Shown here: positions 1 to 32,000 of the stretch, in pieces
Position numbering within the stretch: the first letter of the stretch is position 1
Layout: every line of letters starts with the position of its first letter
Origin: Candidatus Saccharimonadota bacterium
GTDB lineage: Archaea > Nanohalarchaeota > Nanosalinia > Nanosalinales > Nanosalinaceae
Assembly: GCF_047555085.1 (NCBI RefSeq)
Contig: NZ_CP180230.1
Span: 540,001-572,000 of the forward strand
Reading direction: 5' to 3'
DNA: 32,000 nucleotides
Translations under genes and position numbers: made by a program
The notes under the pieces: generated by a model
The model's database searches: none
Told to the model about the DNA's origin: nothing
What the model saw: the letters and a program-made list of their open reading frames with translations, nothing else

Positions 1-741
1 TGCAGAAGGACTATTATCATTATTAAGAGGTCTCACATAGTCTCCATTGCCCCACTCGTAAAGCGTCTGGATTTCAGATTGAGAAAGAGACCGGTTGTAT
101 ACCCTCATAGGGCCGCTTGTAAAATCTGTATATGTCTCTGACTTTCCATCCCCCTTGTTCCTTGCACCCATGAAGTATGCACAGTTCTCTGAATCATGAT
201 CTGTCTGGAAGTTAGGCATTCCATCGAAGGCCTCAGAGGCCTTTTGTACACCATCTACAAAAAGCCTGATCTGTGATCCATCGCAAGTTACCGTTATATT
301 GTACCATTTATCAGGATCTACAGATTCTCCTGTTGAAATATGATATCTCTGAGTTGAAGAACTACCTTCACCTCTATACGCTCTCAAGTATATACCGCCT
401 TCAGCCCAAGTGCCATCATCTACACCTACAGAAATCGAATTATCATTACCGGCATTTGAACCATCATAATCCGTCACACCTTCCATTGTATTGGCCGTGG
501 TATTTGGCTTGATCCATCTAGAGATGCTAAAACTACCTCCTGCAGAAATTAAATCATTCATAGATCCTATATTGACATATCCGCTATTCCCCTCGAAGCT
601 TATTGCCTCAAGGCCTCCTTTACCAGCTACGCCCTGTGTAAGGCCTCCGTTCAGATTCCCGTGATTTCCGTTGCCAGAAAGATCATAGGCCTTTGATCCG
701 GATTTTTCGTGTAGAGGCCACCAGCCAATCAATCCAGTCAT
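1..741 (-). CDS. LamG / concanavalin-A-like lectin domain protein. Partial: the N-terminus is in the window and the C-terminus runs off the left edge.
   Basis: Not in the ORF track because no stop lies in the window. My reverse-strand translation from the ATG at 741 is open all the way to position 1 (247 codons). It reads MTGLIGWWPLHEKSGSKAYDLSGNGNHGNLNGG...SFSISRWIKPN...DKWYNITVTCDGSQIRLFVDGV...MRVYNRSLSQSEIQTLYEWG, the typical LamG_3 pattern. There is no N-terminal signal peptide. Confidence 0.75.
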   Translation of the reverse strand, partial: MTGLIGWWPLHEKSGSKAYDLSGNGNHGNLNGGLTQGVAGKGGLEAISFEGNSGYVNIGSMNDLISAGGSFSISRWIKPNTTANTMEGVTDYDGSNAGNDNSISVGVDDGTWAEGGIYLRAYRGEGSSSTQRYHISTGESVDPDKWYNITVTCDGSQIRLFVDGVQKASEAFDGMPNFQTDHDSENCAYFMGARNKGDGKSETYTDFTSGPMRVYNRSLSQSEIQTLYEWGNGDYVRPLNNDNSPSA

Positions 742-919
742 CTCTACTTAATCTTTGTAGAGGCCTGTGTTAAATCTGTTTGCAGAGAAACGGGAAATTT
801 TAGGAGAAAAATTGATGCAGTGTCCGAAAATCTCAATGAGATTTTCTTAAGCAAGCAAATGAGAAAATTTGCGGCCGAAGCAGTATCTGCTTCTCTGAGC
901 ATCAAAAGAAATTTTTTGA

Positions 920-991
920 TGCGGTGTCCGGGATTTGAACCCGGGTCGCGTGCATGGCAAGCACGAGTCGTAGCCACTGGACCAACACCGC
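920..991 (-). tRNA. tRNA-Gly (anticodon GCC)
   Basis: The reverse complement GCGGTGTTGGTCCAGTGGCTACGACTCGTGCTTGCCATGCACGCGACCCGGGTTCAAATCCCGGACACCGCA folds as a cloverleaf. The acceptor is GCGGTGT/ACACCGC, the anticodon stem is CGTGC/GCACG with loop TTGCCAT, and the T arm is CCGGG-TTCAAAT-CCCGG. No CCA is encoded. Confidence 0.93.
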
Positions 992-1102
992 TTTCCTGTG
1001 TAAAGTAAGAAGTGGTGTTACTGTTTTAAATTAAATGTGGAGGCCTGTAACATGTCAAGAAAATGCCGCTGATTTAAATTAGATACGGGGTAAAAACTTT
1101 CC

Positions 1103-1342
1103 ATGCCTGAGACAAAGATGTCGAAATGTGTTTTCTGCGGGGAATCCGCAACAAAGAAAAACTCCGCCGGACAGCCGGTCTGTAACGAACACAAGGACGA
1201 CGATCCGAAGGAAGTTGCCTGTCCGGAATGCGGGATGCCGATGAAGATCAAGGAAGGCCGCTACGGATTCTTCTGGGGATGCGAAGGATACCCTCAGTGC
1301 GAGGAAACTTTCCAGGTAGAGGCCCTGATCGACGACGAATAA
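1103..1342 (+). CDS. Small zinc-ribbon protein with a topoisomerase-type C4 zinc finger
   Basis: 79 aa. It has CxxC...C pairs (CVFCG..CNEH; CPECGMPMKIKEGRYGFFWGCEGYPQC). The latter matches the zf-C4_Topoisom pattern. The AT-rich box ATTTAAATTA lies about 28 nt upstream. Confidence 0.65.
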   Translation: MPETKMSKCVFCGESATKKNSAGQPVCNEHKDDDPKEVACPECGMPMKIKEGRYGFFWGCEGYPQCEETFQVEALIDDE

Positions 1343-1382
1343 AAAACAAAAACTTTTATTGTTACCTGTAGATAGTTACAGC

Positions 1383-2084
1383 ATGAGTGGTGCTGATTTC
1401 TTCGATACCAGGATGGAAACAGTAGATGACGTGGTTGAGAAGATGGATCAGTTCGAAAAATTTCTTGATGAGAGAGGCCTTGAAAGTTTCAGGCCTTTCC
1501 TGAGAGCATACAGAAAAATTACTCTGAAAGTGATTCAGGCCTCGGAAAAAGACGTCTTCGATAATCCGGGGAAGCTTGAGGAGCTTGATATCCGTTTCGC
1601 AGAGCCTTACTTTGAGGCAATGGAGAAATATTTTCTTGAAGGAGAGAAAAAACAGCCGTGGAAAGAATACCTGAATTACGTTGAGAGAGATGATTCAAGG
1701 CCTGTGCTGGAGCTTTTGCTTGGTATAAATGCACATATCAACGCTGATCTGGGCCAGGCGATGAAAGAAACTGATTACAGCGAGAGACAGGACTTCGAGG
1801 AGATAAACAGGATTCTTCTGGAGGCATTGATCCCTGTAATGGCCGATACAGCTGTACAGAGGAAAGATTTCGAGACACTGGGATTCCTGGGCGTACAGCC
1901 TGTAGCATTCCTGGGCCTGAAAAAAGTAGTTCAATGGAGAGAACAGGCCTGGAAGAACAGAAATAAGGACATCACGGTACTGAGAAAAGAAACAGAGAGG
2001 AAAGCCTGTGAACTGATCGGCATAAGACATGATAACTCGCTGAAAGGCCTCTTCGAGAAGCCAGGAAAGATTCTTTCTGCATGA
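1383..2084 (+). CDS. Hypothetical protein, DUF5995-like
   Basis: The track ORF 1359..2084 starts at TTG, and I prefer the in-frame ATG at 1383. The pattern FRPFLRAYRKIT...FDNP...LDIRFAEPYFEAM...LLLGINAHINADLGQAM resembles the DUF5995 signature (NAHIN.DL). The family call is from memory. Confidence 0.6.
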   Translation: MSGADFFDTRMETVDDVVEKMDQFEKFLDERGLESFRPFLRAYRKITLKVIQASEKDVFDNPGKLEELDIRFAEPYFEAMEKYFLEGEKKQPWKEYLNYVERDDSRPVLELLLGINAHINADLGQAMKETDYSERQDFEEINRILLEALIPVMADTAVQRKDFETLGFLGVQPVAFLGLKKVVQWREQAWKNRNKDITVLRKETERKACELIGIRHDNSLKGLFEKPGKILSA

Positions 2085-2130
2085 AGTCCAGTATTAAATA
2101 ACTATACGGATTCAATAATTTACACGAAAA

Positions 2131-2263
2131 GGGCCTGTAGCTCAGCTGGACAGAGCACTCGGTTCCTAATACCTGCTTCTGCGAAGAATCCGGGTTTGAG
2201 AAAATCTTTTTGATTTTCGATGGAAATACCGAGAGGTCGAGGGTTCAAATCCCCCCAGGTCCG
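2131..2263 (+). tRNA. tRNA-Arg (anticodon CCU) with a 59-nt intron at 37/38 (intron 2169..2227)
   Basis: Exon 1 is GGGCCTGTAGCTCAGCTGGACAGAGCACTCGGTTCCTA. Exon 2 is ACCGAGAGGTCGAGGGTTCAAATCCCCCCAGGTCCG. The anticodon stem is CTCGG/CCGAG. The intron 3' segment GGAA pairs with U32-C35, flanked by the 3-nt bulges UAA and AUA, giving a bulge-helix-bulge. The acceptor contains a G3:U70 wobble and the T stem has one A-C mismatch. Confidence 0.85.
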
Positions 2264-2384
2264 TAAACTCTTTTTGAGGGATTTGACAGCGATCAAGAAA
2301 ACAGAGAGTTTTCGGCGGGTTCGAATCTCATCAGGCTCGAAAATTTTTCCCTAACTTTTTTGTGGAGGCCCTCTACAAATTTTT

Positions 2385-3272
2385 CTATATAGAGGCCATC
2401 GCTACTCCAATAACTATCAGTAATGTGGCAACGAGTTTCTGGACGAGTATTTTTCTGTCCAGTGGTTCATGGATGATTTCAGGATGCAGTTTGCTGATTG
2501 CTGTTGCTGCGAAGAAGATCAAAAGAAATCTTGTCTTTGTAATTGTTGAGACAAGTACTACTGAGCCGAGTGAGACTGCGAGGAAAAACGTGGCCTGTGC
2601 GACTCCTGAGACAAGGCCTGAAAGCATCATGAGTTCAAGGCCTTCAGTATTTTCTTTTATGGCTTCGCGTGATCTGTAGATCAGAGGTGCTGAGAACAGC
2701 ATTCCCATGATTCCGAAGTAGAATAGTAGAGGCCAGATCTCGATTCCTGTGGACACGTGTTTGAATATGACTTCTCTGACTGAGTATGCGAATGCGGATG
2801 CGAGTGCTGCTGCAAGGCCCCAGCTGGACTTCATCTTTCTCAGGCTGTGCAATGGATCTTCAAGCGAGATCAGGATACATCCAAGTACTGTCAGGGCGAC
2901 TCCTGCATATGCAAGAGGTGTTAAAAGCTCCCCTAGAAAGATGAATGAAAGTACCGAGATGAATACTATATCGAATGAAAGTACTGGTGCGAAACGTGAT
3001 ACTTCTTCGCTGCCGACTCCGGAGAACCAGAAGTAGTTGGCCAGTACGTAGAGGCCTCCGATCAGGACTCCTGCGAACAACGTGCCTGGATTGAAGCTGA
3101 ATCCTCCGATGAAGTAGGATATAACGACTACTGCAAGACAGTTGAAGAATGCGTGGAGGCCTCCTGTCCCCATTGGATCATCGAGTTCTGAATCGATCAC
3201 GAACTTGTCAAGTAAAACAACGAACGCCCAGCCGACTGCTGCAGCAAGCGCAAAAAGTATCCATAGCTCCAT
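2385..3272 (-). CDS. EamA/DMT-family membrane transporter
   Basis: 295 aa with about 10 hydrophobic helices arranged as two EamA-like halves. It starts MELWILFALAAAVGWAFVVLLDKF. Confidence 0.7.
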   Translation of the reverse strand: MELWILFALAAAVGWAFVVLLDKFVIDSELDDPMGTGGLHAFFNCLAVVVISYFIGGFSFNPGTLFAGVLIGGLYVLANYFWFSGVGSEEVSRFAPVLSFDIVFISVLSFIFLGELLTPLAYAGVALTVLGCILISLEDPLHSLRKMKSSWGLAAALASAFAYSVREVIFKHVSTGIEIWPLLFYFGIMGMLFSAPLIYRSREAIKENTEGLELMMLSGLVSGVAQATFFLAVSLGSVVLVSTITKTRFLLIFFAATAISKLHPEIIHEPLDRKILVQKLVATLLIVIGVAMASI

Positions 3273-3718
3273 GGAAAAAATTTCCTGACAGCGTTTATTA
3301 ATATTTCAGGCCTCTTTGCTCCAGAGAAAAATTCCTGTTTTTCATACAGGATTTTTCTGGATACTGTAGGCACTCTTTAACTGGATATTAAAGAAATTTG
3401 AGAAAGTTAGAGGCCTTCTAGTTGCATTCAAGGCTGCCTGATGTTCTAGGCATCGGATACTGTGCCATGAACAACTGCATTGAGCCTTCCATGTCGGCCT
3501 TCGAGTTTATGTCAATTTTTCCCCTCATTTTTTGATTTCCCCTCCCAAGGTAAGTTTTTCTTCCGTAATCCATGCTTGTCCGCGGTAGAATTTAAAAAGT
3601 TTGGTCCTGAAGTAGAGTGGCTTATTCACTGTGTAAACAGAACTTTCGCCCCTGGCAGGCGATTACCGAGAGATCAGTCGGTATTTTATTATTCAGAGAA
3701 AGAAAATTAGTTTCCCAG

Positions 3719-4849
3719 ATGCATTCGGCACCATACGAGATAAAAATCAGAGCGGATTCTGGGGAGGCCTCCAAGGAGCACAGTTTCCGCTCAGCACCCG
3801 GTATTTCCAGGCCTGAAACAGCTTTGAGAGAGGAAATCATGCTTTTGAAAGCGGCAGATATAGAAACTACTTCATCGGTGCTTGTTATCGATTCAAGGAT
3901 CGGTATAGAGGGCGTGGTGATCGGTGATAGAGCAAGGAACGGCAGAGTGATGATGACAAGCTCCCGTACACGTGAAACACTGCTTTCGGAGCTTAACAGG
4001 AAGAGAAACGATCCAGAGGCCTCTACAGAAGTCATGCTTACATCGAATATTTCAAAGGACTCTCTCAGGAAGTACGAAAGAGCTGTCTATGCGCCAAGGG
4101 ATAAAGATCCACTCTACCTTGTTAAACAGAAGATGGTGGAGGCTTCACAGGTTCTGCGTGATTCAGGGATTCTTTACATCTCCTCAAGCAGCAAAGTTGC
4201 CTCGAAACTGAAGGATTTCGCCAGTGAGTTTGGAGAAGTACGTGAAACAGTGGAGAACGGCGTTTCCGTACTTGAGATAACTGTTGAAGAGGCCTCTACA
4301 GAGAATGTTGTGGAGGAAAGCCGGCTACAGCACTCTATCAAAGGAGAAAAAGCAAAGTTCAAGGCACTGAAAGGCCTTTTCACGGGCAACGACATGAATC
4401 GCGTTGAGATGCTTTCAAGGGAGATAAGCTCAGGAAAAGGCAAATTACTGGATGCCTCATGTGGATTTGGACTTGTAGGCATATTTGCATCGAAACTTTA
4501 CGGCTATGACGTAGACTTCACAGATAGAGACAGATATATGACAGACTACACAGAAAACAATGCCTCCTTGAACAATCTGGAAGACTTTGAGGCCTTTACT
4601 GAAGATGGAGTGGAAAATTTTCCGTCGATGAAGTACGACGTGATCACCTATCAGGTGAGCGAAGGTTTTGACAGCAAAGTTTTCCGCCAGGATATGAGAG
4701 ACTGTTTCAAGGCCCTGAAGAAAGGAGGAGAGTTATTCGTGGCTCACAGGAAAGATTTCAGGCCTGAAGGTACGTTGAGAACTGTCTTCGGGAACTGTGA
4801 TGTGCGGAGAAGGGAGTTCGATTTCCAGGTTTCTTCAGCTGAGAAATAG
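3719..4849 (+). CDS. Class I SAM-dependent methyltransferase, two-domain RsmC/COG2813-like
   Basis: The track ORF 3617..4849 was trimmed to the in-frame ATG at 3719 (MHSAPYEIKIR...). The C-terminal half has SAM motif I, LLDASCGFGLVGIF, and motif GGELFV. The upstream 34 codons are non-acidic and look non-coding. Confidence 0.6.
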   Translation: MHSAPYEIKIRADSGEASKEHSFRSAPGISRPETALREEIMLLKAADIETTSSVLVIDSRIGIEGVVIGDRARNGRVMMTSSRTRETLLSELNRKRNDPEASTEVMLTSNISKDSLRKYERAVYAPRDKDPLYLVKQKMVEASQVLRDSGILYISSSSKVASKLKDFASEFGEVRETVENGVSVLEITVEEASTENVVEESRLQHSIKGEKAKFKALKGLFTGNDMNRVEMLSREISSGKGKLLDASCGFGLVGIFASKLYGYDVDFTDRDRYMTDYTENNASLNNLEDFEAFTEDGVENFPSMKYDVITYQVSEGFDSKVFRQDMRDCFKALKKGGELFVAHRKDFRPEGTLRTVFGNCDVRRREFDFQVSSAEK

Positions 4850-4940
4850 GATTTTCGGTGTTTACTGGTGTAAGGGATTGCTTTCTGGAGCGTCTACCGG
4901 TGCATATAATTTATTAATAATGCGGAGGTATTGGTTAAAC

Positions 4941-5642
4941 ATGGCTGACGACGATTCAGATTTTAAAGATATTCTAGAAGGAACGGTCGATGAAGTGAAG
5001 GATCGAATCAGGGATCTTGACACACCTGATTACGAAGGCCTTCTGGATGCAGAGAAAGAAGGTAAAGACAGAAAAACTGTGAAAGAGTTCCTGGAGTCCA
5101 AGCTTCCTACAGATGATGAGGAAGAAGACTCCGAGGAAGAGTCCGAGGAGGAAATAGTCGAAGAGATCGAAGAAGAGACTTCTGGAGGTCTACTGGGATC
5201 TTACTCGCCGACATCTGTACTGGCGGGCGGAGTTATCCTAGGCCTTGTAATCGGATTCGTAGCAGCAGGTTTCGCAGGTGTCTCCGGAACTGCAGATACC
5301 GGAACACAGGCTGATGCAGAACTGGTAAGACAGTCTGTTCAGACAGTTGCAGGCGTAGGACTTAACACTACTCCTGACGTTTCAGAGCCTGTTGTCAGAC
5401 ACTCCATGTACAACATGAACGTTTCTACTGACGTACCTACAGAGAACGGTACAGTCACGCAGTCACAGGAAGTATTCGTCACACTTGACGGAGAATACCT
5501 GTTCATCGCTCAGAAACAGTTCGGACAGTACATCAGACCACTTGACCTTCAGAACGCTGTACAGCGCGCACAGGCAGCACAACAGCAGCAGACGGTCAAC
5601 GAGTCCCAGACAGGCGACTCCTCGGATAACACAACCGAGTAA
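4941..5642 (+). CDS. Hypothetical single-pass membrane protein with an acidic N-terminal domain
   Basis: The track ORF 4797..5642 was trimmed to the ATG at 4941 (MADDDSDFKDIL...). It has a poly-E/D linker, a TM segment VLAGGVILGLVIGFVAAGFAGV, and then an extracytoplasmic T/Q-rich domain. Confidence 0.6.
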   Translation: MADDDSDFKDILEGTVDEVKDRIRDLDTPDYEGLLDAEKEGKDRKTVKEFLESKLPTDDEEEDSEEESEEEIVEEIEEETSGGLLGSYSPTSVLAGGVILGLVIGFVAAGFAGVSGTADTGTQADAELVRQSVQTVAGVGLNTTPDVSEPVVRHSMYNMNVSTDVPTENGTVTQSQEVFVTLDGEYLFIAQKQFGQYIRPLDLQNAVQRAQAAQQQQTVNESQTGDSSDNTTE

Positions 5643-5720: not shown

Positions 5721-6278
5721 ATGAAAACTGTTACAGTAATAGGAGGCGGAGTCTCAGGCCTCCAGGCAGGAGTATTCACAGCTAAAGCCGGAGAAGACAC
5801 TCTTGTACTTGACACAGGAGAATCTCTTGTAAAAAATACGTCAAATATCAAAAATCTAATAGGCCAGGACTCTATAGCCGGAAATGAACTACTGAAAAAA
5901 GGAAAAGATAAACTCGAAAGATTCAACGGCGAACTGAAAGAAGAAAAAGTAGAAAAAGTTGAAAGAACAGATGAAGGCCTCAAAGTAACGACTTCTGAAG
6001 ACGAGTACATGACCGAATACGTCGTAGTGGCCTCTGCCGGAAATCTTGATTTCCTTGAACTCGATGTAGAGTTCGAAGACGGCGCTGAAGGCCCATACAT
6101 GATGGATAAACATCTGAAGACCGACGACTCCAACAAGGCCTGTGAAAACGTTTATGCAGCCGGCCTGGCGAACTCCTGGGAGTACCAGACGTCTATCGCT
6201 ATCGGAGACGGTGCGAAAGCTGCTGTAAATCTTCTCAGCGATCTCAGGGATGAGCCTTACACAGATCACGATACCTAG
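5721..6278 (+). CDS. FAD-binding oxidoreductase. It is thioredoxin-reductase-like but has only the FAD domain.
   Basis: 185 aa. The N-terminal dinucleotide motif is VIGGGVSGLQAG..DTLVLD. The C-terminal part VYAAGLAN...AIGDGAKAAVNL is typical of the second half of the TrxR FAD domain. There is no second GxGxxG/A NAD(P)H domain and no CxxC. Confidence 0.7.
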   Translation: MKTVTVIGGGVSGLQAGVFTAKAGEDTLVLDTGESLVKNTSNIKNLIGQDSIAGNELLKKGKDKLERFNGELKEEKVEKVERTDEGLKVTTSEDEYMTEYVVVASAGNLDFLELDVEFEDGAEGPYMMDKHLKTDDSNKACENVYAAGLANSWEYQTSIAIGDGAKAAVNLLSDLRDEPYTDHDT

Positions 6279-6289
6279 AGGCCTCTCCA

Positions 6290-8879: not shown

Positions 8880-9722
8880 ATGGAAATTACAATCGGAGCG
8901 CATGTAAGCATCTCGGGCGGAATGGACAAAGCAATCGAAAGACAGGAAGATATCGGAGGAAACTGCGGCCAGATATTCGCAGGAAGCCCGCGTACCTGGA
9001 GCGTCTCAGAATATGAAAAAGAGGAAGGAGAAAAGTTTCAGGAGATGCGAGATGAGAAAGGCCAGAATCCTTACGTGATCCACTCCACCTATCTTGTCAA
9101 CCTTGCAACGCCAAAAGACGATCTCTTCGAGAAATCGCTGAACTGCCTTCAGAGCGAGCTTGACGCAGCAGCAACTCTCGGCGTAGAATACGTAGTATTC
9201 CACCCGGGAGCACACACAGGATCAGGCCGCGACACAGGTGTAAAAAGGATCGCAGAAGGAATCGACGAACTGGATATACCGGAAAATGTAACTCTTTTAC
9301 TTGAAAACACCGCTGGAAAAGGTACAACACTCGGAAGATCGATGGGAGAACTCAGAGACATGATCAAACATGCAGAAACTCCTGATGAAAAGATCGGAGT
9401 CTGCATTGATACATGCCACGCACACGCAGCAGGATACGACCTCGTCAGTGAAGAAGGATTCCAAGACTTCCTTCAGGAGATCAAAGAGGACATAGGCCTT
9501 GACAAGATCAAAGTACTACATCTCAACGACTCAAAAGATGAACGAGGAAGCGAAAAAGACAATCACATGGATATAGGCTATGGAGAGATCGGCGATGAAG
9601 GATTCTCAAACATCGTCAATGCTGAAGAGTTCGAAGACCTGCCGATAATCCTGGAAACACCAAGCGACAAGAGAGCAGGATACAAGGAGAACCTGGAACA
9701 CATCCTGGAACTCAGAGAATGA
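8880..9722 (+). CDS. nfo: Endonuclease IV (AP endonuclease family 2)
   Basis: Conserved blocks are HVSISGG, IFAGSPRTW, HSTYLVNLA, VFHPGAH, LLENTAGKG, CIDTCHAHAAGYD and LHLNDSK...GS.KD.H..IG.GEIG. Confidence 0.95.
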   Translation: MEITIGAHVSISGGMDKAIERQEDIGGNCGQIFAGSPRTWSVSEYEKEEGEKFQEMRDEKGQNPYVIHSTYLVNLATPKDDLFEKSLNCLQSELDAAATLGVEYVVFHPGAHTGSGRDTGVKRIAEGIDELDIPENVTLLLENTAGKGTTLGRSMGELRDMIKHAETPDEKIGVCIDTCHAHAAGYDLVSEEGFQDFLQEIKEDIGLDKIKVLHLNDSKDERGSEKDNHMDIGYGEIGDEGFSNIVNAEEFEDLPIILETPSDKRAGYKENLEHILELRE

Positions 9723-10285
9723 AACCTCCAGAGAAACTCAGGGAAGACGAAAAGTTAAGGCCTCTGATAGAGGAACACGGCGAGCTGGAACTTGAGGCCT
9801 CGGAAAATCCTTTCGAGAGAATGGTAACATCTATAGTAAATCAGCAGTTGTCGACTCAGTCGGCAGAGGCCATCAGAAGTCGTCTGTTCGATAATTTCGA
9901 GATATCTCCAGAGGCCTTGCTGGATGCTGACAAGGAAGAACTTGCGGATGTAGGCCTTTCAAGGCAGAAGATCGATTACATCAGATCTGCGGCCCGGCAT
10001 TTTATCGAGGATGATCTTTCAGTGGAAAAGTTTTCCAACATGAGCGATGAAGAAGTTATCGATGAGTTGACTGATATCCACGGTGTCGGTGACTGGACTG
10101 CGAAGATGTTCATGATCTCGGTGCTGGCCCGTGAAGATGTCTTCCCTGTTGAGGATCTGGGTATAAGGAGGGCTATGGAAGAGGTCTATGGCCTTGAGTC
10201 GAGAGGTGAGATGAGGGAGAAGGCGGAGGACTGGAGGCCTTACAGGGGTCTGGCTTCGCGTTATCTGTGGCGGGCAGTTGATTGA
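9719..10285 (+). CDS. HhH-GPD DNA glycosylase (AlkA-like 3-methyladenine DNA glycosylase II)
   Basis: The protein has VNQQLSTQSAEAIRSRL and a helix-hairpin-helix plus catalytic Asp region, LTDIHGVGDWTAKMFMISVLAREDVFPVEDLGIRRA. Its start overlaps the nfo stop (ATGA). Confidence 0.88.
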   Translation: MKPPEKLREDEKLRPLIEEHGELELEASENPFERMVTSIVNQQLSTQSAEAIRSRLFDNFEISPEALLDADKEELADVGLSRQKIDYIRSAARHFIEDDLSVEKFSNMSDEEVIDELTDIHGVGDWTAKMFMISVLAREDVFPVEDLGIRRAMEEVYGLESRGEMREKAEDWRPYRGLASRYLWRAVD

Positions 10286-10289
10286 GGCC

Positions 10290-11036
10290 TTAAATCATTA
10301 GTTCATCCAGTTCGTCGGCAATTTCTTCACGTGAATAACTGTCTTCGCTCTGCGCAGCGTATTCATTATCCACAGCTTCAAGATGATCGTAGACGTCTTC
10401 TACAGCTTCTGTGATGTCATCAGCTTCCACTGATACAGAGGCCTGTCTCGGATTTTCAAGATTCATATCTACTTCTTCAGGGCCTACTGCTTCCAGTGCT
10501 GCCTTCTCAAGTTCGCCATCAAAGTCGTCGTACATCCATTCGTTGAAGCTGTAAGTAAAGTTTTCATCGCCTGAAGTACCATGGTACTGTATATCAACGC
10601 CGAGGCCTGTATAAGGTAGCTGTTCAGTCCACTGTGCTCCAAGGCCCTGACTGGAAATAAGTTCAACGGCATCAACTACAGCTTCGTTCCTTGAATCGCC
10701 AATTACTTCTGTAGCCGCTATCTCTCTGTCCAGGCTGTCGATGTAATTAAGCAGCTCTGCTCCTGCATGTTTAAAATCCTCCATCTGCACATGGACTCCT
10801 GGCTCTCCAACAGCAGCCTTAACTTCTTCACCGGAAGCATCTATAGCAGCCTCAGTAGTTGCAATTATGTTCTTTTTATCGTAAACTGCCTCATCCATAC
10901 TGATCTGTACGCTAACCGCATCTTCATCAACGTCAACCACTGCAATATCAGCTTCAAAACCTGTTCTAGTCAGCGGATAAGACATAGAAACTGCTGAATC
11001 ATTTTCTCCGGAGTCTGAAACAGAGTCCGTGCTCAT
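10290..11036 (-). CDS. Hypothetical, extremely acidic protein
   Basis: 248-aa ORF with no recognisable family. It is convergent with the AlkA-like gene, with only 4 nt between the stops. Confidence 0.55.
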   Translation of the reverse strand: MSTDSVSDSGENDSAVSMSYPLTRTGFEADIAVVDVDEDAVSVQISMDEAVYDKKNIIATTEAAIDASGEEVKAAVGEPGVHVQMEDFKHAGAELLNYIDSLDREIAATEVIGDSRNEAVVDAVELISSQGLGAQWTEQLPYTGLGVDIQYHGTSGDENFTYSFNEWMYDDFDGELEKAALEAVGPEEVDMNLENPRQASVSVEADDITEAVEDVYDHLEAVDNEYAAQSEDSYSREEIADELDELMI

Positions 11037-11889: not shown

Positions 11890-12082
11890 GGGGGTGTAGC
11901 TCAATCCGGGAGAGCGTCCGCCTCCAGAATATTACTGGAGGAATGAGAACTGTTTCGCAAGAAACGGTTCGATGATTAAAAGATTGAAACTGGCTTACAG
12001 TTTCCTACTTCCCAGAAAATCCATTGAGGATTTTCCACTTGGAGATAGCGGAAGGTTGCATGTTCAAATCATGCCACCCCCA
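11890..12082 (+). tRNA. tRNA-Trp (anticodon CCA) with a 119-nt intron at 37/38 (intron 11928..12046)
   Basis: Exon 1 is GGGGGTGTAGCTCAATCCGGGAGAGCGTCCGCCTCCAG. Exon 2 is AGCGGAAGGTTGCATGTTCAAATCATGCCACCCCCA. The acceptor is GGGGGTG/CACCCCC, the anticodon stem is TCCGC/GCGGA, and the T arm is GCATG-TTCAAAT-CATGC. GGAG (12041-12044) pairs with C32-C35, flanked by the bulges AGA and AUA, giving a BHB with the same geometry as in tRNA-Arg. Confidence 0.9.
11935..11978 (+). ncRNA. C'/D'-like K-turn plus guide element inside the tRNA-Trp intron (putative Cm34 guide)
   Basis: The guide CUGGAGG (11935-11941) is complementary to C31-G37. The D'-like AUGA lies at 11943-11946. A 10-bp hairpin GAACUGUUUC-GCAA-GAAACGGUUC spans 11947-11970, followed by a 3-nt bulge and the C'-like AUGAUUA at 11972-11978. 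The fifth nucleotide upstream of the D' box pairs with C34. The D' position-1 A and the C' position-6 U can pair in place of the consensus C-G. Confidence 0.45.
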
Positions 12083-12140
12083 TTTTCCCATTCCATTGCC
12101 TCAGGATATTTTTTATTCAGGCCTTTGTTCAATAGTTTCT

Positions 12141-12683
12141 ATGAGTGACTGTCTTGTTGCTGTGCATCCTATCTATGATGTCAGCGAGCATTTTCCGGAT
12201 TATCGTCTGGAGGAGCGTTCTGTGGCTGCTGTAAAAAATTTTTCAGGAGATACTCTATGTCTTGCTTACAAGGATGGAGAAGGTGTTAGAAGGCCTTATG
12301 GAGGAAGAGATCTGTATGGCCATGTTATAGATGATCCTAACTATGGTGAAGTTCCTGATCCTGTAGCTGAGATGATTGTGAAGAAGTATGATCGTGTTTT
12401 CGTAATGGGAGGATTCTTGACGGCGTGTGTATCGAAGTTTTACTCGAAAATACAGTCTCTGAATGAAAAATCCGGTGAAAATACTGAAATAGTGATCCTT
12501 GTTGACCTGCTTATCTCACAGGCCAAGAAAAAAGTTGAGAGGGAAGTTAACGGAGAAAAAGGGGAGATATGTCAGGGAATCCCCGCTCCAAGCATGGAGT
12601 GGGAGACTAACTATGAAGACAAGATAGCCAAGTACTTCGGAGCTGAAAACGTAGAGGCCGTTGAATGGAGGACTATGAAATAG
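12141..12683 (+). CDS. Hypothetical protein
   Basis: The track ORF 12024..12683 begins inside tRNA-Trp, so I trimmed it to the ATG at 12141 (MSDCLVAVHPIYDV...). The segment RVFVMGGFLTACV faintly resembles isochorismatase-like folds, which is too weak for a call. Confidence 0.5.
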   Translation: MSDCLVAVHPIYDVSEHFPDYRLEERSVAAVKNFSGDTLCLAYKDGEGVRRPYGGRDLYGHVIDDPNYGEVPDPVAEMIVKKYDRVFVMGGFLTACVSKFYSKIQSLNEKSGENTEIVILVDLLISQAKKKVEREVNGEKGEICQGIPAPSMEWETNYEDKIAKYFGAENVEAVEWRTMK

Positions 12684-16734: not shown

Positions 16735-16870
16735 TTTGAACAGTACTACACTGGTCAAAGAACTTTTTTACTGCTTTCGGTGGTTTTCTGCTCTCCACAT
16801 TATAAGACTTGTGGAAAAACATAGAATCCGGTACAAGGCCTATAGTACCGGTTTTTCAGGGTTTCAGAGC

Positions 16871-16905: not shown

Positions 16906-18627
16906 ATGTGTGGGATTGTAGGATACTATGGACAGGACGAGGCCTCGGACAAGATTTATAGAGGCCTGAAGAAGCTTGAGTACAGAGGATATGACTCGGC
17001 AGGAATGGCTACTGCAGGAAATCCGACGATAAAAGTTGAGAAAGCTGTTGGAACAGTTGATAACGTCAGGCCGGAGATCGATGGTACTTCCGGTATCGGA
17101 CATACACGATGGGCCACTCACGGCGGCGTTACAGAGGAGAACGCTCATCCTCATGTAAGCCAGGAGGAGAGAGTTGCTGTTGTCCACAACGGAATAATCG
17201 AAAACTATCGCGAGATCCAGGAGGAACACCTTGAAGATGTCGATTTCAAGTCGGAGACGGATACAGAAGTTATTCCTCATCTTCTGGAGAAAAAACTAGA
17301 GAACAACAGCATAACGGACGCTATCAGAGAAGTTATAGATATACTTGAAGGAAATTATGCGGTTTCTGCAGTACTTAATACCGGCGAGCTTATAGCTTTC
17401 AGGAAAGGCTCTCCTCTTGTACTGGGCCTGACAGACGATGAATACTTTATCGCATCCGACGTTACACCGTTCCTTGAGCATACTGATCAGGCAGTTTTCC
17501 TGAAGGATGATGATTACATGGTGATCGATGGAGATCACAGAATATTTAACGACGGCGAGGAAGTCGATAGAGAAGTTCAGAAGATAGACTGGGATGCAGA
17601 ACAGGCCTCGAAAGAAGGATACGACCACTTCATGGAAAAAGAGATCAGAGAGCAGCCTAAAACCGTGAAAAGAGCTGCTTTTCAGGACAGAAGCGATATG
17701 GAGGAAGCTAGAAGAATGATTGAAGAAGCCGACAACGTTTACATTACAGGATGCGGGACGGCCAGTTTCGCAGCTTCCCTTGGAGCAAGGTATCTGAGAG
17801 AAGCCGGATCTAAAGTACATACAGAACAGGCCCACGAACTTGAGTACAGAAAAGATGAGATAAAAGAAGATGATCTTGTTATAGCTGTCAGTCAGAGCGG
17901 AGAGACAGCTGATCTACTTTCACTGCTTGAAGAAGTTGATTCAGATGTACTGGCTGTAGTCAATGTCGTTGGATCAACACTTGCACGTCAATCAGAACAC
18001 AAGTTATACGTTAACGCCGGGCCTGAAATCGGAGTTGCCAGTACGAAAGCATTCACCGCCCAGCTTGCTGTACTGCGTCTAATATCTTACACTTTACAGG
18101 ACAGGCTTGAGGAAGGACGTGAAAAGCTTCTGGATACTGCAGAAAAGATCGATGATGTTCTTGAGAGGAACAAGAAATCTGTGCAGGAATTAAGCGAATA
18201 TCTTACAGATAAGGACCACGTGTACTTCATAGGAAGGAATCATGGATACGACATGGCCAGAGAAGCTAATCTGAAGCTGAAAGAGCTTTCCTACATCCAT
18301 GCAGAGGCCTTTCCAGGCGGAGAGTTCAAGCACGGTACTCTGGCTCTTGTAGAGAACGGTACACCCGTAGTATCCTTCCTCAAGGACGATCATTTCGAGG
18401 CTGCTTACTCAAACATGATGGAGGCTCATTCACGTGGAGCTGATATAATCTCTGTAGGAACGAGGGAAGTTGAGGAATCGAAGGCTCACATCAGTGTTCC
18501 TGAGGATGAGAACGCGGAGATACTTGAGATTGTGCCTTTCCAGATGGCGTCATATCTGACATCAGTGAAGAAAGGAAACAATCCTGATAAGCCACGGAAT
18601 CTGGCGAAGTCAGTTACCGTGAAATAA
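16906..18627 (+). CDS. glmS: Glutamine--fructose-6-phosphate aminotransferase (isomerising)
   Basis: The track ORF 16879.. was trimmed to give the obligatory N-terminal Met-Cys (MCGIVGYYG). It has a class II glutamine amidotransferase domain, two SIS domains (ITGCGTAS, VSQSGETADL) and a C-terminal KPRNLAKSVTVK. Confidence 0.97.
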   Translation: MCGIVGYYGQDEASDKIYRGLKKLEYRGYDSAGMATAGNPTIKVEKAVGTVDNVRPEIDGTSGIGHTRWATHGGVTEENAHPHVSQEERVAVVHNGIIENYREIQEEHLEDVDFKSETDTEVIPHLLEKKLENNSITDAIREVIDILEGNYAVSAVLNTGELIAFRKGSPLVLGLTDDEYFIASDVTPFLEHTDQAVFLKDDDYMVIDGDHRIFNDGEEVDREVQKIDWDAEQASKEGYDHFMEKEIREQPKTVKRAAFQDRSDMEEARRMIEEADNVYITGCGTASFAASLGARYLREAGSKVHTEQAHELEYRKDEIKEDDLVIAVSQSGETADLLSLLEEVDSDVLAVVNVVGSTLARQSEHKLYVNAGPEIGVASTKAFTAQLAVLRLISYTLQDRLEEGREKLLDTAEKIDDVLERNKKSVQELSEYLTDKDHVYFIGRNHGYDMAREANLKLKELSYIHAEAFPGGEFKHGTLALVENGTPVVSFLKDDHFEAAYSNMMEAHSRGADIISVGTREVEESKAHISVPEDENAEILEIVPFQMASYLTSVKKGNNPDKPRNLAKSVTVK

Positions 18628-18673
18628 GGCCTTTTTCGAAAGATTTATACCGTTAGAGGCCTCTGGATAGTCC

Positions 18674-20744: not shown

Positions 20745-20759
20745 GCGGGGGTAGCCAAG
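20745..20759 (+). repeat. 15-nt direct repeat copying the 5' end of tRNA-Leu
   Basis: GCGGGGGTAGCCAAG at 20745-20759 is identical to 20803-20817, the first 15 nt of tRNA-Leu, with a period of 58 nt. Confidence 0.85.
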
Positions 20760-20802: not shown

Positions 20803-20885
20803 GCGGGGGTAGCCAAGTGGTCAAAGGCGCAGGACTTAGGATCCTGTCGGTTAGCCGTTCGCAGGTTCGAATCCTGTCCCCTGCA
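20803..20885 (+). tRNA. tRNA-Leu (anticodon UAG), class II with a long variable arm
   Basis: The sequence is GCGGGGGTAGCCAAGTGGTCAAAGGCGCAGGACTTAGGATCCTGTCGGTTAGCCGTTCGCAGGTTCGAATCCTGTCCCCTGCA. The anticodon stem is CAGGA/TCCTG with loop CTTAGGA, the variable arm is CGG-TTAG-CCG, and the T loop is TTCGAAT. Confidence 0.9.
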
Positions 20886-26915: not shown

Positions 26916-26935
26916 GAGGCCTGGAAAAAGGCCTC
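26916..26935. terminator. Hairpin GAGGCCU-GGAAAA-AGGCCUC between convergent genes
   Basis: A 7-bp perfect stem is built from two AGGCCT copies. It sits in the 48-nt spacer between the permease stop (26897) and the sod stop (26946). Confidence 0.35.
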
Positions 26936-26945
26936 CAAGTGAGCT

Positions 26946-27849: not shown

Positions 27850-27874
27850 GACCGATTTTTCCTTACTGGTCTAA

Positions 27875-28108: not shown

Positions 28109-28153
28109 CTAAGTTTTAGTCTTCAACCCATTAAAAGGTAACGAAGAGGAAAC

Positions 28154-28516: not shown

Positions 28517-28548
28517 GAATAAAGCAGAGAAACTGAATTTCTTAAACG

Positions 28549-29139: not shown

Positions 29140-29259
29140 CCTTCCCTACAGGAAAGTTCTCGCACCATATTTAAGAAATGAACCCGGGAAGGAGAGGCCT
29201 TCGAATTCATTCGAGGCCTTTTATTCAAAAAGCTTTCATTCCATGAATCTATTTACAGC

Positions 29260-29334
29260 GCGGTTGTGGTGTAGTCCGGCCAATCATGTTGGCTTCTCGA
29301 GCCAACGACCCGGGTTCAAATCCCGGCAACCGCA
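29260..29334 (+). tRNA. tRNA-Glu (anticodon CUC)
   Basis: The sequence is GCGGTTGTGGTGTAGTCCGGCCAATCATGTTGGCTTCTCGAGCCAACGACCCGGGTTCAAATCCCGGCAACCGCA. The anticodon stem is TTGGC/GCCAA with loop TTCTCGA, and the T arm is CCGGG-TTCAAAT-CCCGG. Confidence 0.9.
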
Positions 29335-29410
29335 AATATTTTCGAGTATTTCTACTGTTTCTCACGTAAAAAATCAGAGACAGAACGGACTGATACTGTA
29401 GAAAGTTATT

Positions 29411-32000
29411 TCATCCGCTGAATTCATCGAATTCATTCATCCTGTCTCCGTATTTTCTTGACAGCTTTCTTCTGAAAGTTACCTCTATAGCTGTGAATAC
29501 TGTAAGTGCTGCTGCAATGTATCCCCATTCAGTGAGGCCTAGAGGTACTACACCGAAGAATTCTGAGACTGGTGTGTATACTACTATCAAATGGCTTAGA
29601 GATGCCAGGCCTATCATAGAGATCAGCCATTTGTTGTCACGGAGCTTTAATCCGTAGTCTCTTCGAATGACCTGGAACATGATTATCTCGAAGAAAGCCA
29701 GTGCCATGAAGAGCATTGTCTGTGCTGTTGCAAAGTTCTGCTTCAGAATTACTCCAAACAACTGCTCCTGAAGGAAAAACAATGGAAGCATAGTAGCTGC
29801 TGCAAGAGGGCCTGTAAACGCTATCATAGCCAGTATCTTCCTGTCTATAATCGATTCATCAGGATCACGTGGATCTCTCTCCATGATACCTTCTACCTTT
29901 GGATCCTCTCCCAGTGCAATAGCTGGAGGACCATCGCTAGCGAAGTTCACCCACAGTATCATCACTGCTGTAAGCACAGAGGCCTCAGAAGCTGCAAAGG
30001 CCTGCTCTGGGCCGCTGAAGAAGAGGCCTGCTATCAGAGTCCCCAGGAATATGAACATCACTTCCCCTGAGTTAGTCGAGAGCAACTGATTCGTGACTTT
30101 TCTTATATTGTCGAAGACTGCTCGTCCTTCCGAGATAGCATCTCTTATAGTTACGAAGTTGTCGTCCTGTAGTACCATGTCGCTGCTTTTCTTGGCGACG
30201 TCTGTTCCTCTCTGTCCCATGGCTACTCCGACATCCGAGTTTTTCAGCGCAGGCGCATCGTTCACTCCGTCACCTGTCATAGCCACGTTGTATCCGTGAT
30301 CCTGAAGGGCCTGAGAGATTCTGACCTTATGTTCTGGAGAGACTCTTGCAAATATCTCTGTCTCCTTAACGGCCTCACCAAGCTCTTCATCACTCATCTT
30401 CTCTATCTCCTGGCCGGTGATAGCTCCTTCAGGATCAAATCCAAGCTCCTTCCCTATAGCCTTCGCAGTCTCGATATTATCTCCAGTCGCCATGATCACG
30501 CCGATACCTGCATTCCTGCAGTCATTAACTGCATCCTCTACTTCTTCACGTGCCGGATCTATGATTCCCTGAAGGCCCAGAAATACCATGCCACTTTCTA
30601 TATCTTCTTCAGAGGCCTCGTCATCATCCAGATCTTTTCTTGCGAATCCAAGAACTCTCAAGGCCTCTCCTGCGTACTCATGATTCTTTTCAAGTATCTC
30701 CTCTTTCTTCTCCTCAGTAAGCTTTTTCTCCTCGCCCTCAAGCAGGATCCTGTCACACCTGTCCAGGACTACTTCAGGCGCTCCCTTCATATAGGCCTGG
30801 GAATCGTCAGTAACTACGGTCATCCTTTTCCTGTCAGATGAGAAAGGTATACTTCTGACACGTTCTTTATCGTTCTCTATGCCTGCCTTGAGGCCTGAAA
30901 TCAACAAGGCCTTTTCAGTTGGTTCTCCACTGAATCCATCGTCTCTTTTCTCTGCATTGTTGCAGTAGACTCCACATTCAAGTACAGGCCTGAGATACTC
31001 CGAATCTATCTTTTCTCCGTCTTTTTTGAAAAGGCCTTGCGTTGATTCGCCTGTGCCTGTAACACTGTAGTCTTCTCCCTGGAAATGGACTTTTTCCACT
31101 GTCATTACGCCCTCAGTCAGAGTTCCTGTCTTATCGGTTACAATGTAGTTAACTGAGCCAAGTGCCTCAACTACTGGAAGACGCCTTACGAGAGCATTTT
31201 TATCTATCAACTTTCGGGAGCCCAGGGCCAGAGTTAAAGTAACTATAGCAGGAAGCGATTCAGGTATAGCCGCAACAGAGAGGCCTATAGCCAGTATGAT
31301 AACTGTTAATGGGCCTGCACCTGTCATAGTCGCCTGTATAAGTGCTGTTAAAGTGACTATGCCGACAACAAGATATCCTATCTTCTTTCCTAGAACATCT
31401 ACTTCCTCCTGGAACGGTGTCTGGCCACTATCTGCTTCCTCAAGCTCCTCCGCTATATCCCCTACCTCGGTATTCATGCCTGTATCCGTGACTATGGCCT
31501 TTCCACGGCCTTTCACCACGTGCGTGTTCATGAAAACCATGTTTGACTGTTCGGCTACTGCAGCTTCTTCATCAGTGACGCCAGGACTTTTTGACACATT
31601 CCGGCTCTCGCCCGTAAGCGCTGATTCATCAGTTGCAAGCGATTCACTCTCCAGAAGTCGTGCGTCAGCAGGAACAGCATCACCCTGCTCAAGATAGACA
31701 ATATCACCTGGAACGACCTGTGTGGAATCAACCTCCATCTTTTTACCGTCCCTCATCACTGTAGACTCCGGCGTCGCCATCTCTTTAAGAGCCTGAATCG
31801 ATTTCTCTGCCTTGTAATCCTGTCTGAACCCGAAAAGTGCATTAGCGAAAAGTATCAGAAATATTATCGCTGCTTCACGGTACTCAGGCGTATGATCCGG
31901 CAATAAACCTATGGAAAGAGAAAGTAAACCTGCTGCCATCAGCAGATATATCAGATTATCGTTAAACTGGCTGAATAAAATTTTCAGTGCAGAATCGGAC
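29411..32000 (-). CDS. P-type cation-transporting ATPase (P2, Ca2+/cation type). Partial: the N-terminus lies beyond the right edge.
   Basis: Motifs present are DKTGTLTEG, KGAPE, TGDNIETAKAIG, MTGDGVNDAPALK and IPESLPAIVT. The reading frame stays open upstream of the track's Met at 31939 (..ALKILFSQFNDNLIYLLMAAGLLSL, typical of the pre-TM1 region) to position 32000. Confidence 0.93.
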   Translation of the reverse strand, partial: SDSALKILFSQFNDNLIYLLMAAGLLSLSIGLLPDHTPEYREAAIIFLILFANALFGFRQDYKAEKSIQALKEMATPESTVMRDGKKMEVDSTQVVPGDIVYLEQGDAVPADARLLESESLATDESALTGESRNVSKSPGVTDEEAAVAEQSNMVFMNTHVVKGRGKAIVTDTGMNTEVGDIAEELEEADSGQTPFQEEVDVLGKKIGYLVVGIVTLTALIQATMTGAGPLTVIILAIGLSVAAIPESLPAIVTLTLALGSRKLIDKNALVRRLPVVEALGSVNYIVTDKTGTLTEGVMTVEKVHFQGEDYSVTGTGESTQGLFKKDGEKIDSEYLRPVLECGVYCNNAEKRDDGFSGEPTEKALLISGLKAGIENDKERVRSIPFSSDRKRMTVVTDDSQAYMKGAPEVVLDRCDRILLEGEEKKLTEEKKEEILEKNHEYAGEALRVLGFARKDLDDDEASEEDIESGMVFLGLQGIIDPAREEVEDAVNDCRNAGIGVIMATGDNIETAKAIGKELGFDPEGAITGQEIEKMSDEELGEAVKETEIFARVSPEHKVRISQALQDHGYNVAMTGDGVNDAPALKNSDVGVAMGQRGTDVAKKSSDMVLQDDNFVTIRDAISEGRAVFDNIRKVTNQLLSTNSGEVMFIFLGTLIAGLFFSGPEQAFAASEASVLTAVMILWVNFASDGPPAIALGEDPKVEGIMERDPRDPDESIIDRKILAMIAFTGPLAAATMLPLFFLQEQLFGVILKQNFATAQTMLFMALAFFEIIMFQVIRRDYGLKLRDNKWLISMIGLASLSHLIVVYTPVSEFFGVVPLGLTEWGYIAAALTVFTAIEVTFRRKLSRKYGDRMNEFDEFSG

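Follow-up and report, generated by a model that had tools for sequence, protein, structure and literature searches.

Why should a six-base palindrome recur every few hundred bases along the genome of a small, salt-loving symbiotic archaeon? This question is raised by a stretch of 32,000 bases, called the window here (positions 540,001 to 572,000 of contig NZ_CP180230.1, assembly GCF_047555085.1), in which the hexamer AGGCCT is hyper-abundant. The GlmS protein encoded in the window is 100% identical to WP_414837266.1/XOE43782.1 (Candidatus Nanosalina sp.), and archaeal features of the window include intron-containing tRNAs and S-layer and TrmB-type domains. GlmS homologues place it in Nanohaloarchaeota, near Candidatus Nanosalina.

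Abundance and sharpness of the motif

Exact counting gave 140 copies of AGGCCT in the window, equal to 4,375 per Mb and a mean spacing of 223 nucleotides (nt). At the measured G+C (GC) content of 45.9%, base composition (zero-order) predicts 6.5 copies and a first-order Markov model 7.8; dinucleotide-preserving shuffles of the window gave 7.2 ± 2.5 (maximum 15). The excess over these nulls is 18-21-fold (about 19-fold), and we consider it confirmed as real and strong. AGGCCT ranks first among the hexamers of the window. Ranks 2-6 are taken by words that overlap it (GAGGCC, GGCCTC, GGCCTT, GGCCTG and AAGGCC), and the most frequent unrelated hexamer, AGAAAA, reaches 52 copies. Of 249 GGCC tetramers, 140 belong to AGGCCT. 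Each one-off neighbour has between 1 and 29 copies, and only GGGCCT (29) and AGGCCC (19) are elevated among them. The 12-mers centred on the 140 sites comprise 134 distinct words, therefore no longer repeat is involved.

These figures agree closely with an earlier note on this DNA, which from a hand count had put the motif at about 140 copies against 5-10 expected (an excess of about 20-fold) and had called it a sharply defined 6-mer; its GC estimate of 43-44% was too low. The note had also proposed a comparison with a maximal-order Markov model. This model predicts 133 copies, a value that is uninformative because its sub-words are products of the motif itself. The comparison is thus circular, and the shuffled nulls leave a large excess: the observed-to-expected copy ratio is far from 1 under dinucleotide-preserving as well as codon-preserving shuffles.

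The copies (position of the first base) are as follows.

1-32000, no strand assigned: the AGGCCT field, 140 dispersed copies, 116 in coding sequence and 24 intergenic or at gene edges.
1-8 kb: 228, 237, 611, 641, 687, 761, 1041, 1475, 1491, 1537, 1698, 1945, 2045, 2614, 2638, 3052, 3157, 3308, 3411, 3765, 3809, 4017, 4290, 4372, 4590, 4760, 5036, 5240, 5756, 5975, 6136, 6279, 6595, 6661, 6967, 6990, 7219, 7300, 7684, 7796, 7841.
8-16 kb: 8320, 8352, 8648, 9494, 9758, 9795, 9912, 9952, 10235, 10285, 10439, 10603, 11250, 11293, 11468, 11771, 11853, 12119, 12291, 12708, 12937, 13174, 13269, 13450, 13624, 13687, 13992, 14026, 14100, 14608, 14644, 14992, 15261, 15544, 15707.
16-24 kb: 16125, 16268, 16378, 16414, 16836, 16940, 16962, 17603, 18305, 18627, 18657, 18928, 19080, 19355, 19536, 19983, 20056, 20156, 20269, 20618, 20723, 20965, 21171, 21199, 21334, 21396, 21495, 21924, 22410, 22508, 22778, 22980, 23906.
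24-32 kb: 24057, 24481, 24922, 25071, 25482, 26020, 26183, 26395, 26684, 26917, 26929, 27224, 28225, 28353, 28590, 28808, 29195, 29214, 29535, 29607, 29980, 29998, 30024, 30613, 30661, 30793, 30891, 30907, 30986, 31032, 31281.

Placement in coding and intergenic DNA

A curated set of 39 genes covers 90% of the window. The 116 coding copies were compared with 22.4 ± 4.1 (maximum 35) under a shuffle of synonymous codons within genes and with 9.1 ± 2.9 under a shuffle of codon order. The former null is conservative because the motif itself inflates codon usage. Codon phases 0, 1 and 2 hold 18, 46 and 52 of the coding copies. The motif can be accommodated silently in R-P, in [KQE]-A-[FLSYCW] and in x-G-L (silent-compatible contexts), and in the window 0.72, 0.61 and 0.57 of these contexts were filled in the three phases, respectively. 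The density of AGGCCT was 7.7 per kb in intergenic DNA (24 copies in 3.1 kb) vs. 4.0 per kb in coding sequence. The motif is therefore carried in all phases, on both strands and between genes, with an occupancy that is similar across the three phases. Both statements of the earlier note on this point, that codon or dipeptide usage is no explanation and that the motif is independent of frame, strand and coding status, hold up under these counts. Its example of three phases within one gene (1475, 1491 and 1537) was accurate, and the intergenic positions that it cited are correct except that 18656 should read 18657.

1475-1542, plus strand: three copies in three codon phases of one gene (1359-2084, DUF5995); 1475 reads xxA GGC CTx, 1491 AGG CCT and 1537 xAG GCC Txx, with start-codon offsets modulo 3 of 2, 0 and 1.
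29980-30029, minus strand: the tightest grouping of copies (three in 50 nt), which falls in the P-type ATPase gene 29411-31939 (minus strand).
3406-3421, no strand assigned: intergenic copy 3411 with the near-complete extended palindromic consensus gTTAG·AGGCCT·tCTAg.
6279-6284, no strand assigned: intergenic copy immediately 3' of the stop codon of gene 5721-6278; the next start codon lies 6 nt on.
10285-10290, no strand assigned: copy bridging convergent genes; the first A of the motif is the final base of the stop codon of gene 9719-10285.
18627-18662, no strand assigned: copies 18627 and 18657, both in the intergenic spacer that separates glmS from the next gene; the flank of 18657 is extended (gTTAG·AGGCCT·CT).
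26917-26934, no strand assigned: a pair of intergenic copies, 12 nt from each other and flanked by convergent genes; 26917 has a TTAG flank.

Among the copies in the four motif-bearing loci described below, seven adjoin a stop codon or overlap with one. The motif is depleted at -36 to -26 relative to start codons, the zone of the TATA box and B recognition element, and at -10 to +30, and no sharp peak of AGGCCT was found relative to start or stop codons. A promoter or terminator element was rejected on this ground. Spacing in the window (coefficient of variation 0.84) is slightly more even than uniform random placement (P about 0.02). At the local scale of the 32-kb window, its regularity does not exceed that of compatible contexts filled at random (P 0.1-0.2), and regular spacing was rejected as insignificant against such filling.

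Distribution among relatives

We compared the window with syntenic loci from relatives. Each is listed with the identity of its GlmS to that of the window, the number of AGGCCT copies and the length of the locus.

L081: 91%, 78 copies, 14.5 kb.
L082: 89%, 83 copies, 21.7 kb.
L083: 80%, 70 copies, 21.7 kb.
L084: 80% (GlmS the same as in L083), 19 copies, 5.7 kb.
L208: 8 copies, 2.4 kb.
L087: 79%, 1 copy, 13.9 kb.
L085 (GCA_042218365.1): 78%, 4 copies, 21.7 kb.
L209: 77%, 4 copies, 5.2 kb.
L210: 74%, 1 copy, 15.5 kb.
L211: 74%, no copy, 9.4 kb.
L086 (Nanohalobium constans): 68%, 3 copies, 21.7 kb.

Motif-bearing bins stand behind ENA ERZ28654222, ERZ28435421 and ERZ28435294 and JGI Ga0102942; the motif-free side is represented by GCA_042218365.1, ERZ23491536, JGI 3300007616 and Nanohalobium constans CP040089.

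The window and L081-L083 together hold 371 copies in 89.9 kb. Density was 3.2-5.4 per kb in these four related motif-bearing lineages vs. about 0.14 per kb in the sister clade and Nanohalobium constans. L208 was the single contig (2.4 kb, motif-bearing) recovered when metagenomes were scanned with a lineage-specific protein of 412 residues. In all, abundance of AGGCCT was seen in five independent assemblies from different sources. No alternative hyper-abundant hexamer was found in the motif-free loci. In L209, 4 of 10 GGCC are AGGCCT, which is slightly above chance and short of hyper-abundant.

Seven shared genes, with 2,201 aligned residues, were used for a tree. In it, the window and L081-L083 form one clade, with L085 and L087 as the sister group and L086 as the outgroup. 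Bootstrap support for the motif-bearing clade is 100%, and it stayed at 100% after masking of all alignment columns touched by the motif; convergent amino-acid changes that might fake the clade were thereby rejected. The monophyly of the motif-bearing lineages points to a single gain on their stem, and such a gain, deduced from the sequence tree, would explain why the trait is clade-specific. It has been maintained across divergence as deep as 70% amino-acid and 68% nucleotide identity.

Saturation of silent contexts and amino-acid replacement

From orthologous codon alignments, the fraction of silent-compatible contexts that are filled was estimated at 84% in L081, 76% in L082 and about 55% in L083, vs. 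4% in L085 and L087. Over the whole window the value is 60%. Under a simple two-state equilibrium this shift in occupancy would correspond to a scaled coefficient of about 3.6-4.8. Conservation of sites between genomes was 0.67, 0.56 and 0.29 for AGGCCT vs. 0.22, 0.20 and 0.12 for control hexamers, i.e., 2.4-3 times higher. Where another genome has the site, occupancy was 0.92, 0.90 and 0.64, and overall it was 0.84, 0.76 and 0.56. Since conditional occupancy is barely above overall occupancy, the sharing of sites follows from saturation together with amino-acid conservation. Selection on individual AGGCCT sites is not required for it.

Protein sequences have been affected too. Over an identical set of ungapped columns, compatible contexts number 32-39 in motif-bearing and 18-23 in motif-free genomes. 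We examined the outgroup contexts at 70 motif positions: all were compatible with the motif at 8 positions, and none was compatible at 46. At 10 of these 46 the outgroups share one older residue. Replacements that created sites include EEF to EAF, QTS to QAS, KDF to KAW, TGI to TGL and QP to RP. As judged from these alignments, amino acids have been replaced to create AGGCCT sites at weakly constrained residues. Sites are displaced by 1-12 nt between lineages and align without gaps to non-motif hexamers of relatives, indicating an origin by substitution.

Position-by-position specificity and flanking bases

To express the pressure on each base, we used the shift of motif-to-neighbour odds in motif-bearing relative to motif-free genomes. 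For positions 3/4 the shift was 32-77-fold, for 2/5 it was 24-70-fold and for the outer pair, 1/6, it was 4-13-fold. All nine neighbour classes were shifted, the transversion neighbours by 12-70-fold. The most depleted neighbour was AGACCT/AGGTCT, at 0.38-fold of its level in motif-free genomes, vs. 0.83-fold for AAGCCT/AGGCTT. GGGCCT/AGGCCC were enriched 7-fold relative to motif-free genomes.

The depletion of AGACCT/AGGTCT, the inner transition neighbours, is what a purely mutational bias would leave behind if a very-short-patch (Vsr- or Mig-like) enzyme repaired T:G to C:G at a methylated inner cytosine of AGGCCT. Such repair protects or converts only the C/T pair at the methylated cytosine, and for this reason it is disfavoured as the sole cause: transversion neighbours and outer positions are driven as well (4-70-fold in odds), and an occupancy of 55-84% would be out of reach if one position pair were protected. 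The silent Gly codon GGT is no more depleted than GGA or GGG, and the amino-acid replacements would stay unexplained. The effect of Dcm/Vsr in E. coli is modest, and the only glycosylase of the window (9719-10285) is AlkA-like and not Mig-like. We regard this cause, taken alone, as very improbable. Biased very-short-patch-type repair coupled to a GGCC/AGGCCT methyltransferase had been suggested in the earlier note; the repair half of that suggestion does not suffice, given that all six positions are driven and occupancy is too high, whereas a link to a methyltransferase is possible and is taken up below. The note's other two suggestions, a DNA-uptake or recombination signal and a site for a DNA-binding protein, are possible as well.

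Outside the hexamer, T at -1 (12/140) and A at +1 (8/140) are avoided in the window. A weak flank preference of twofold symmetry, T(-4,-3) A(-2) G(-1)·AGGCCT·CTAA, is present in all four genomes and is strongest in L083 and in intergenic DNA. In the pooled intergenic half-sites, the preferred bases were found in 27/48 (T at -4), 26/48 (T at -3), 23/48 (A at -2) and 21/48 (G at -1). The 10-mer AGAGGCCTCT makes up 14/70 of the sites in L083 vs. 5/140 in the window, and in L083, where saturation is lower (about 55%), it looks like a lineage "dialect" of the motif.

The flank symmetry persists when sites are read in transcript orientation. Flank information is at most 0.33 bit per position, and complementarity between the two flanks equals the expectation from base frequencies. 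Because flank pairs are no more complementary than chance, the half-sites are read as double-stranded DNA, with no hairpin or RNA involved. The same level of complementarity led us to reject a hairpin or template-switch origin of the flanks and, together with the low flank information, a dispersed repeat of the REP (repetitive extragenic palindromic) or MITE (miniature inverted-repeat transposable element) kind. We also weighed the trivial causes as a group, namely that the motif reflects codon or dipeptide usage, belongs to a dispersed repeat or a miniature mobile element, works as an RNA or a peptide motif, or is an assembly artefact. The maximal-order Markov value, close to the observed count but circular, is what speaks for them. 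Against them stand the excess left by the shuffles, the presence of the motif in all phases, both strands and intergenic DNA, the variety of 12-mers, the rise of sites by substitution in ungapped alignments, the flank symmetry in transcript orientation and the independent assemblies. Their combined probability is negligible in our judgment.

The specificity profile is that of a twofold-symmetric protein-DNA interface, with a strong GGCC core, weaker outer A/T and weak TTAG/CTAA flanks. We concluded that a clade-specific, position-independent pressure favours the whole hexamer in double-stranded DNA and is limited only by functional constraint. The pressure acts genome-wide, as shown on one syntenic region of about 90 kb.

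An interface of this kind could belong to an abundant dimeric chromatin, architectural or segregation protein whose binding sites are selected, with cells needing a high site density. The twofold-symmetric preference of about 14 base pairs (bp), stronger in intergenic DNA, would suit such a protein, and conservation at 2.4-3 times that of control hexamers is the same argument from which Xu et al. derived selection on HIP1, a cyanobacterial palindrome compared below. The extra conservation is, however, almost fully due to saturation. Spacing is no more regular than random filling of contexts, and the sites keep no sharply defined place with respect to genes. A selective advantage would be needed at every one of about 4,500 sites, and known archaeal chromatin proteins are not hexamer-specific. 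Selected binding sites thus appear quite unlikely to us.

Foreign DNA and the motif

Two low-GC inserts in the relatives have almost no AGGCCT. They lie at 2496-4403 of L081 and at about 3900-4700 of L082 and have 35-39% GC. The former encodes a 635-residue protein without Pfam or phage match and the latter a Fic-domain gene. In L081 no AGGCCT was found in the 2 kb from 2501 to 4500, and from 3501 to 5500 of L082 there were only 1-2 copies per 1.5-kb window. The inserts resemble DNA of recent acquisition, in which the motif has yet to build up: the AGGCCT signature is acquired with residence time. A phage tblastn search with the L081 insert protein and a viral-contig search with a neighbouring gene gave no match. 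A scan of IMG/VR for triple AGGCCT returned, among the matches listed, chance matches or tandem repeats and no nanohaloarchaeal virus. One viral contig fragment, L088 (IMG/VR UViG_3300029432_000018), is unrelated and has 36% GC, 13 AGGCCT in 3.6 kb and a recurring TTAAGGCC.

The lack of the motif in acquired DNA is also expected of a DNA-uptake or recombination signal that works without methylation. In this explanation a receptor or recombination protein prefers conspecific DNA with AGGCCT, and homologous replacement carries the motif to every place that tolerates it, a molecular drive as for the DNA uptake sequences (DUS) of Neisseria and the uptake signal sequences (USS) of Pasteurellaceae. 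A saturating, position-independent pressure, protein sequences bent to fit the motif, weak flank preferences with the AGAGGCCTCT dialect and spacing no more regular than random filling of available contexts all agree with it. A 2026 preprint, moreover, proposes HIP1 as a self-DNA watermark or DNA uptake sequence. DUS and USS resemble the AGGCCT case in their accumulation at all tolerated positions with effects on proteins, in clade dialects, in weak flank preferences and in their absence from recently acquired DNA, and they are explicable by molecular drive without benefit per site. They differ in being 9-12 nt long, asymmetric (non-palindromic) and present about once per kb, compared with a 6-bp palindrome with symmetric flanks at 4-5 per kb, and in being read by known competence proteins of naturally transformable bacteria. 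We know of nothing comparable in Archaea, and for nanohaloarchaea neither an uptake sequence nor a competence system is known. The loci that we examined showed no uptake gene. We rate uptake or recombination without methylation as unlikely, though worth keeping in mind.

Comparison with highly iterated palindromes and other systems

HIP1 (GCGATCGC) is one of the highly iterated palindromes (HIPs) and occurs at 300-2,700 copies per Mb in cyanobacteria (Elhai, PMC4390886). In other lineages it is replaced by words such as GGCGCC (Calothrix PCC 7103), CAGGCCTG (Synechococcus sp. PCC 6312) and GGGATCCC (Synechococcus JA strains), with palindromic extensions and with one-off variants that deviate mostly at the ends (PMC4390886, PMC5861425). 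HIP1 sites are conserved, and CAGGCCTG is over-represented in Synechococcus PCC 6312 (Xu et al., PMC5861425). HIPs co-occur with cognate orphan methyltransferases, and a methylation-directed repair ratchet has been proposed (Elhai, PMC4390886).

The likeness to AGGCCT is extensive. Each is a perfect palindrome of few bases and at the same time a Type II recognition sequence (StuI in the case of AGGCCT), has an observed/expected ratio of at least 15 and thousands of copies per Mb, is found in all reading frames and between genes, and has spread by substitution and not by insertion. On/off switching between related lineages, palindromic flank extensions that differ between lineages and one-off variants that deviate mostly at outer positions are also shared. 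Sites are better conserved than control words in both, and for AGGCCT saturation accounts for most of this. HIP1 had been named as the closest precedent in the earlier note, a choice strengthened by the AGGCCT core of CAGGCCTG, which is identical to our motif. AGGCCT belongs phenomenologically to the HIP class.

Differences were also noted. HIPs are known from cyanobacteria, whereas AGGCCT is found in Archaea, in a DPANN episymbiont with a 1-Mb genome. HIP1 is an octamer at the density given above, while AGGCCT is a hexamer at 3,200-5,400 per Mb. Near-saturation of silent contexts and amino-acid replacement have been shown explicitly for AGGCCT. Cognate methyltransferases exist for HIPs and none was found for AGGCCT in about 90 kb. 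HIPs show a quasi-periodicity of 10-90 kb; the window spans 32 kb. We found no earlier report of AGGCCT abundance in Nanohaloarchaeota in the literature searched, and the motif is the first archaeal counterpart of HIP1 that we could find.

Two further groups of systems bear on the comparison. Dcm/Vsr of E. coli (CCWGG) and the Mig.Mth/GGCC methyltransferase pair of Methanothermobacter also have an enriched site and a depleted deamination-type neighbour (here AGACCT/AGGTCT, 0.38-fold), but the AGGCCT effect is far larger and acts on all six positions, and neither a vsr nor a mig gene turned up in the window or the relatives' loci. Restriction-site avoidance, the lot of most short palindromes, likewise concerns bona fide Type II sites such as AGGCCT, and CTAG and CAATTG are avoided in the window; AGGCCT has the opposite sign, with enrichment of about 19-fold. 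The palindromes depleted in the window are CTAG (47 vs. 131 expected), CAATTG (0 vs. 8.8), CTTAAG (2 vs. 10), GAATTC (6 vs. 16) and GGGCCC (0), and GTAC and TATA are about 2-fold enriched. These deviations may be footprints of other restriction-modification systems.

Candidate enzymes and preferred explanation

The only restriction-type gene in the window and L081-L083 is of the Mrr family and lies at the edge of L082. The window gene at 3617-4849 encodes a 410-residue protein with a C-terminal MTS methyltransferase domain and a weak PADLOC match to mad2. The protein is RsmC/MJ0882-like, without an NPPY-type motif. Its L085 orthologue is only 46% identical, and it evolves faster than its neighbours. 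The HhH-GPD gene at 9719-10285 adjoins endonuclease IV and is the sole glycosylase gene of the window; as a Mig-like T:G enzyme it was rejected, being AlkA-like.

Our preferred explanation, to which we give somewhat less than an even chance, is that the motif is read by a StuI-type enzyme, most probably a persistent cytosine methyltransferase, and that marked sites have spread by biased fixation. The predicted reader of AGGCCT would be a DNA enzyme restricted to the clade and with the sequence specificity of a Type II (StuI-like) enzyme, most probably an orphan or persistent cytosine methyltransferase. AGGCCT would then be a putative methylated mark of self-DNA, alleles with the mark would be fixed preferentially, and copies would spread. 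This could happen through a methylation-directed repair ratchet of the kind proposed by Elhai for HIPs. Alternatively, conspecific DNA with the mark could be favoured in uptake, survival or recombination, which is the current proposal for HIP1. The build-up of copies would be a drive, checked by coding constraint alone and without selection on single sites. A survey of archaeal restriction-modification systems reports persistent orphan methyltransferases that make N4-methylcytosine (m4C) or 5-methylcytosine (m5C); it includes one nanohaloarchaeon and gives no persistent system for DPANN (PMC10609329).

Several points weigh against a StuI-type methyltransferase. Neither the window nor L081-L083, together about 90 kb or about 8% of a genome, yielded a DNA methyltransferase, a Vsr or a Type II endonuclease. 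The MTS protein at 3617-4849 was rejected as the AGGCCT methyltransferase on account of its RsmC/MJ0882-like type, its lack of an NPPY-type motif and its orthologue in motif-free L085. Type II methyltransferases do not usually have a recognition preference as wide as the one seen here (about 14 bp), and a dimeric DNA-binding protein fits equally well. Neither a DNA uptake sequence nor methyl-directed mismatch repair is known in Archaea. Equilibrium sequence patterns cannot separate drive from weak genome-wide selection. One syntenic region supplied all the data, namely the 32 kb of the window and about 58 kb contributed by three other lineages that bear the motif. The probability left beyond the readings given here goes to mechanisms not yet imagined.

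tRNA genes and other local features

Five tRNA genes were detected in the window, three by ARAGORN and two intron-containing ones by Rfam.

920-991, minus strand: tRNA-Gly, without AGGCCT.
2131-2263, plus strand: tRNA, without AGGCCT.
11890-12082, plus strand: tRNA, without AGGCCT.
20803-20885, plus strand: tRNA-Leu, without AGGCCT.
29260-29334, plus strand: tRNA, without AGGCCT.
16828-16851, no strand assigned: 24-nt palindrome CCGGTACAAGGCCTATAGTACCGG containing AGGCCT, upstream of glmS.

The motif is absent from all five tRNAs, just as the earlier note had it: strongly constrained RNA genes exclude AGGCCT. The tRNA genes at 2131-2263 and 11890-12082 have long introns and are those seen by Rfam only and missed by ARAGORN. 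The latter overlaps the 5' end of a mechanically called open reading frame (12024-12683), therefore the true start of that frame must be further downstream.

The CCGGTACAAGGCCTATAGTACCGG palindrome is kept in motif-bearing L081 and L082. In L083, AACCTC replaces its AGGCCT, and motif-free L085 keeps the element including AGGCCT. Most likely it serves as a site-specific operator and has nothing to do with the genome-wide motif. The 5' end of tRNA-Leu is duplicated over 15 nt at 20745-20759, which is 58 nt upstream of the tRNA-Leu gene. The same neighbourhood contains an integrase and a type III restriction-modification system in L085 (14443-20069) and an MmeI-like type IIG enzyme in L086 (13881-17972), which suggests an integration hot spot.

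Significance

For 30 years the HIPs of cyanobacteria have lacked an agreed explanation, with selection, a repair ratchet and an uptake signal as the competing views. AGGCCT represents an independent origin in another domain and in very small genomes (1 Mb). The contrast between lineages is sharp: one with a GlmS 80% identical to that of the window has the motif, and those at 78-79% do not. Because the trait is on in one clade and off in its sister, the causal gene should be findable by a presence/absence comparison of genomes, and with 55-84% of silent opportunities saturated the strength of the pressure is measurable. The motif strongly distorts the tetranucleotide signatures used for binning and shapes codon and amino-acid usage (Ala, Gly-Leu and Arg-Pro), and digestion with StuI or HaeIII could be diagnostic for the clade. 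In a bolder form, which we consider possible but rather unlikely, AGGCCT would be a "self-DNA watermark", the first in Archaea: in an episymbiont that must import host nucleic acids, an enzyme peculiar to the clade would mark the hexamer or read it, conspecific DNA would be retained, recombined or used as a template for repair, host DNA would be treated as food, and molecular drive would have given rise, independently, to a system of the HIP1 type.

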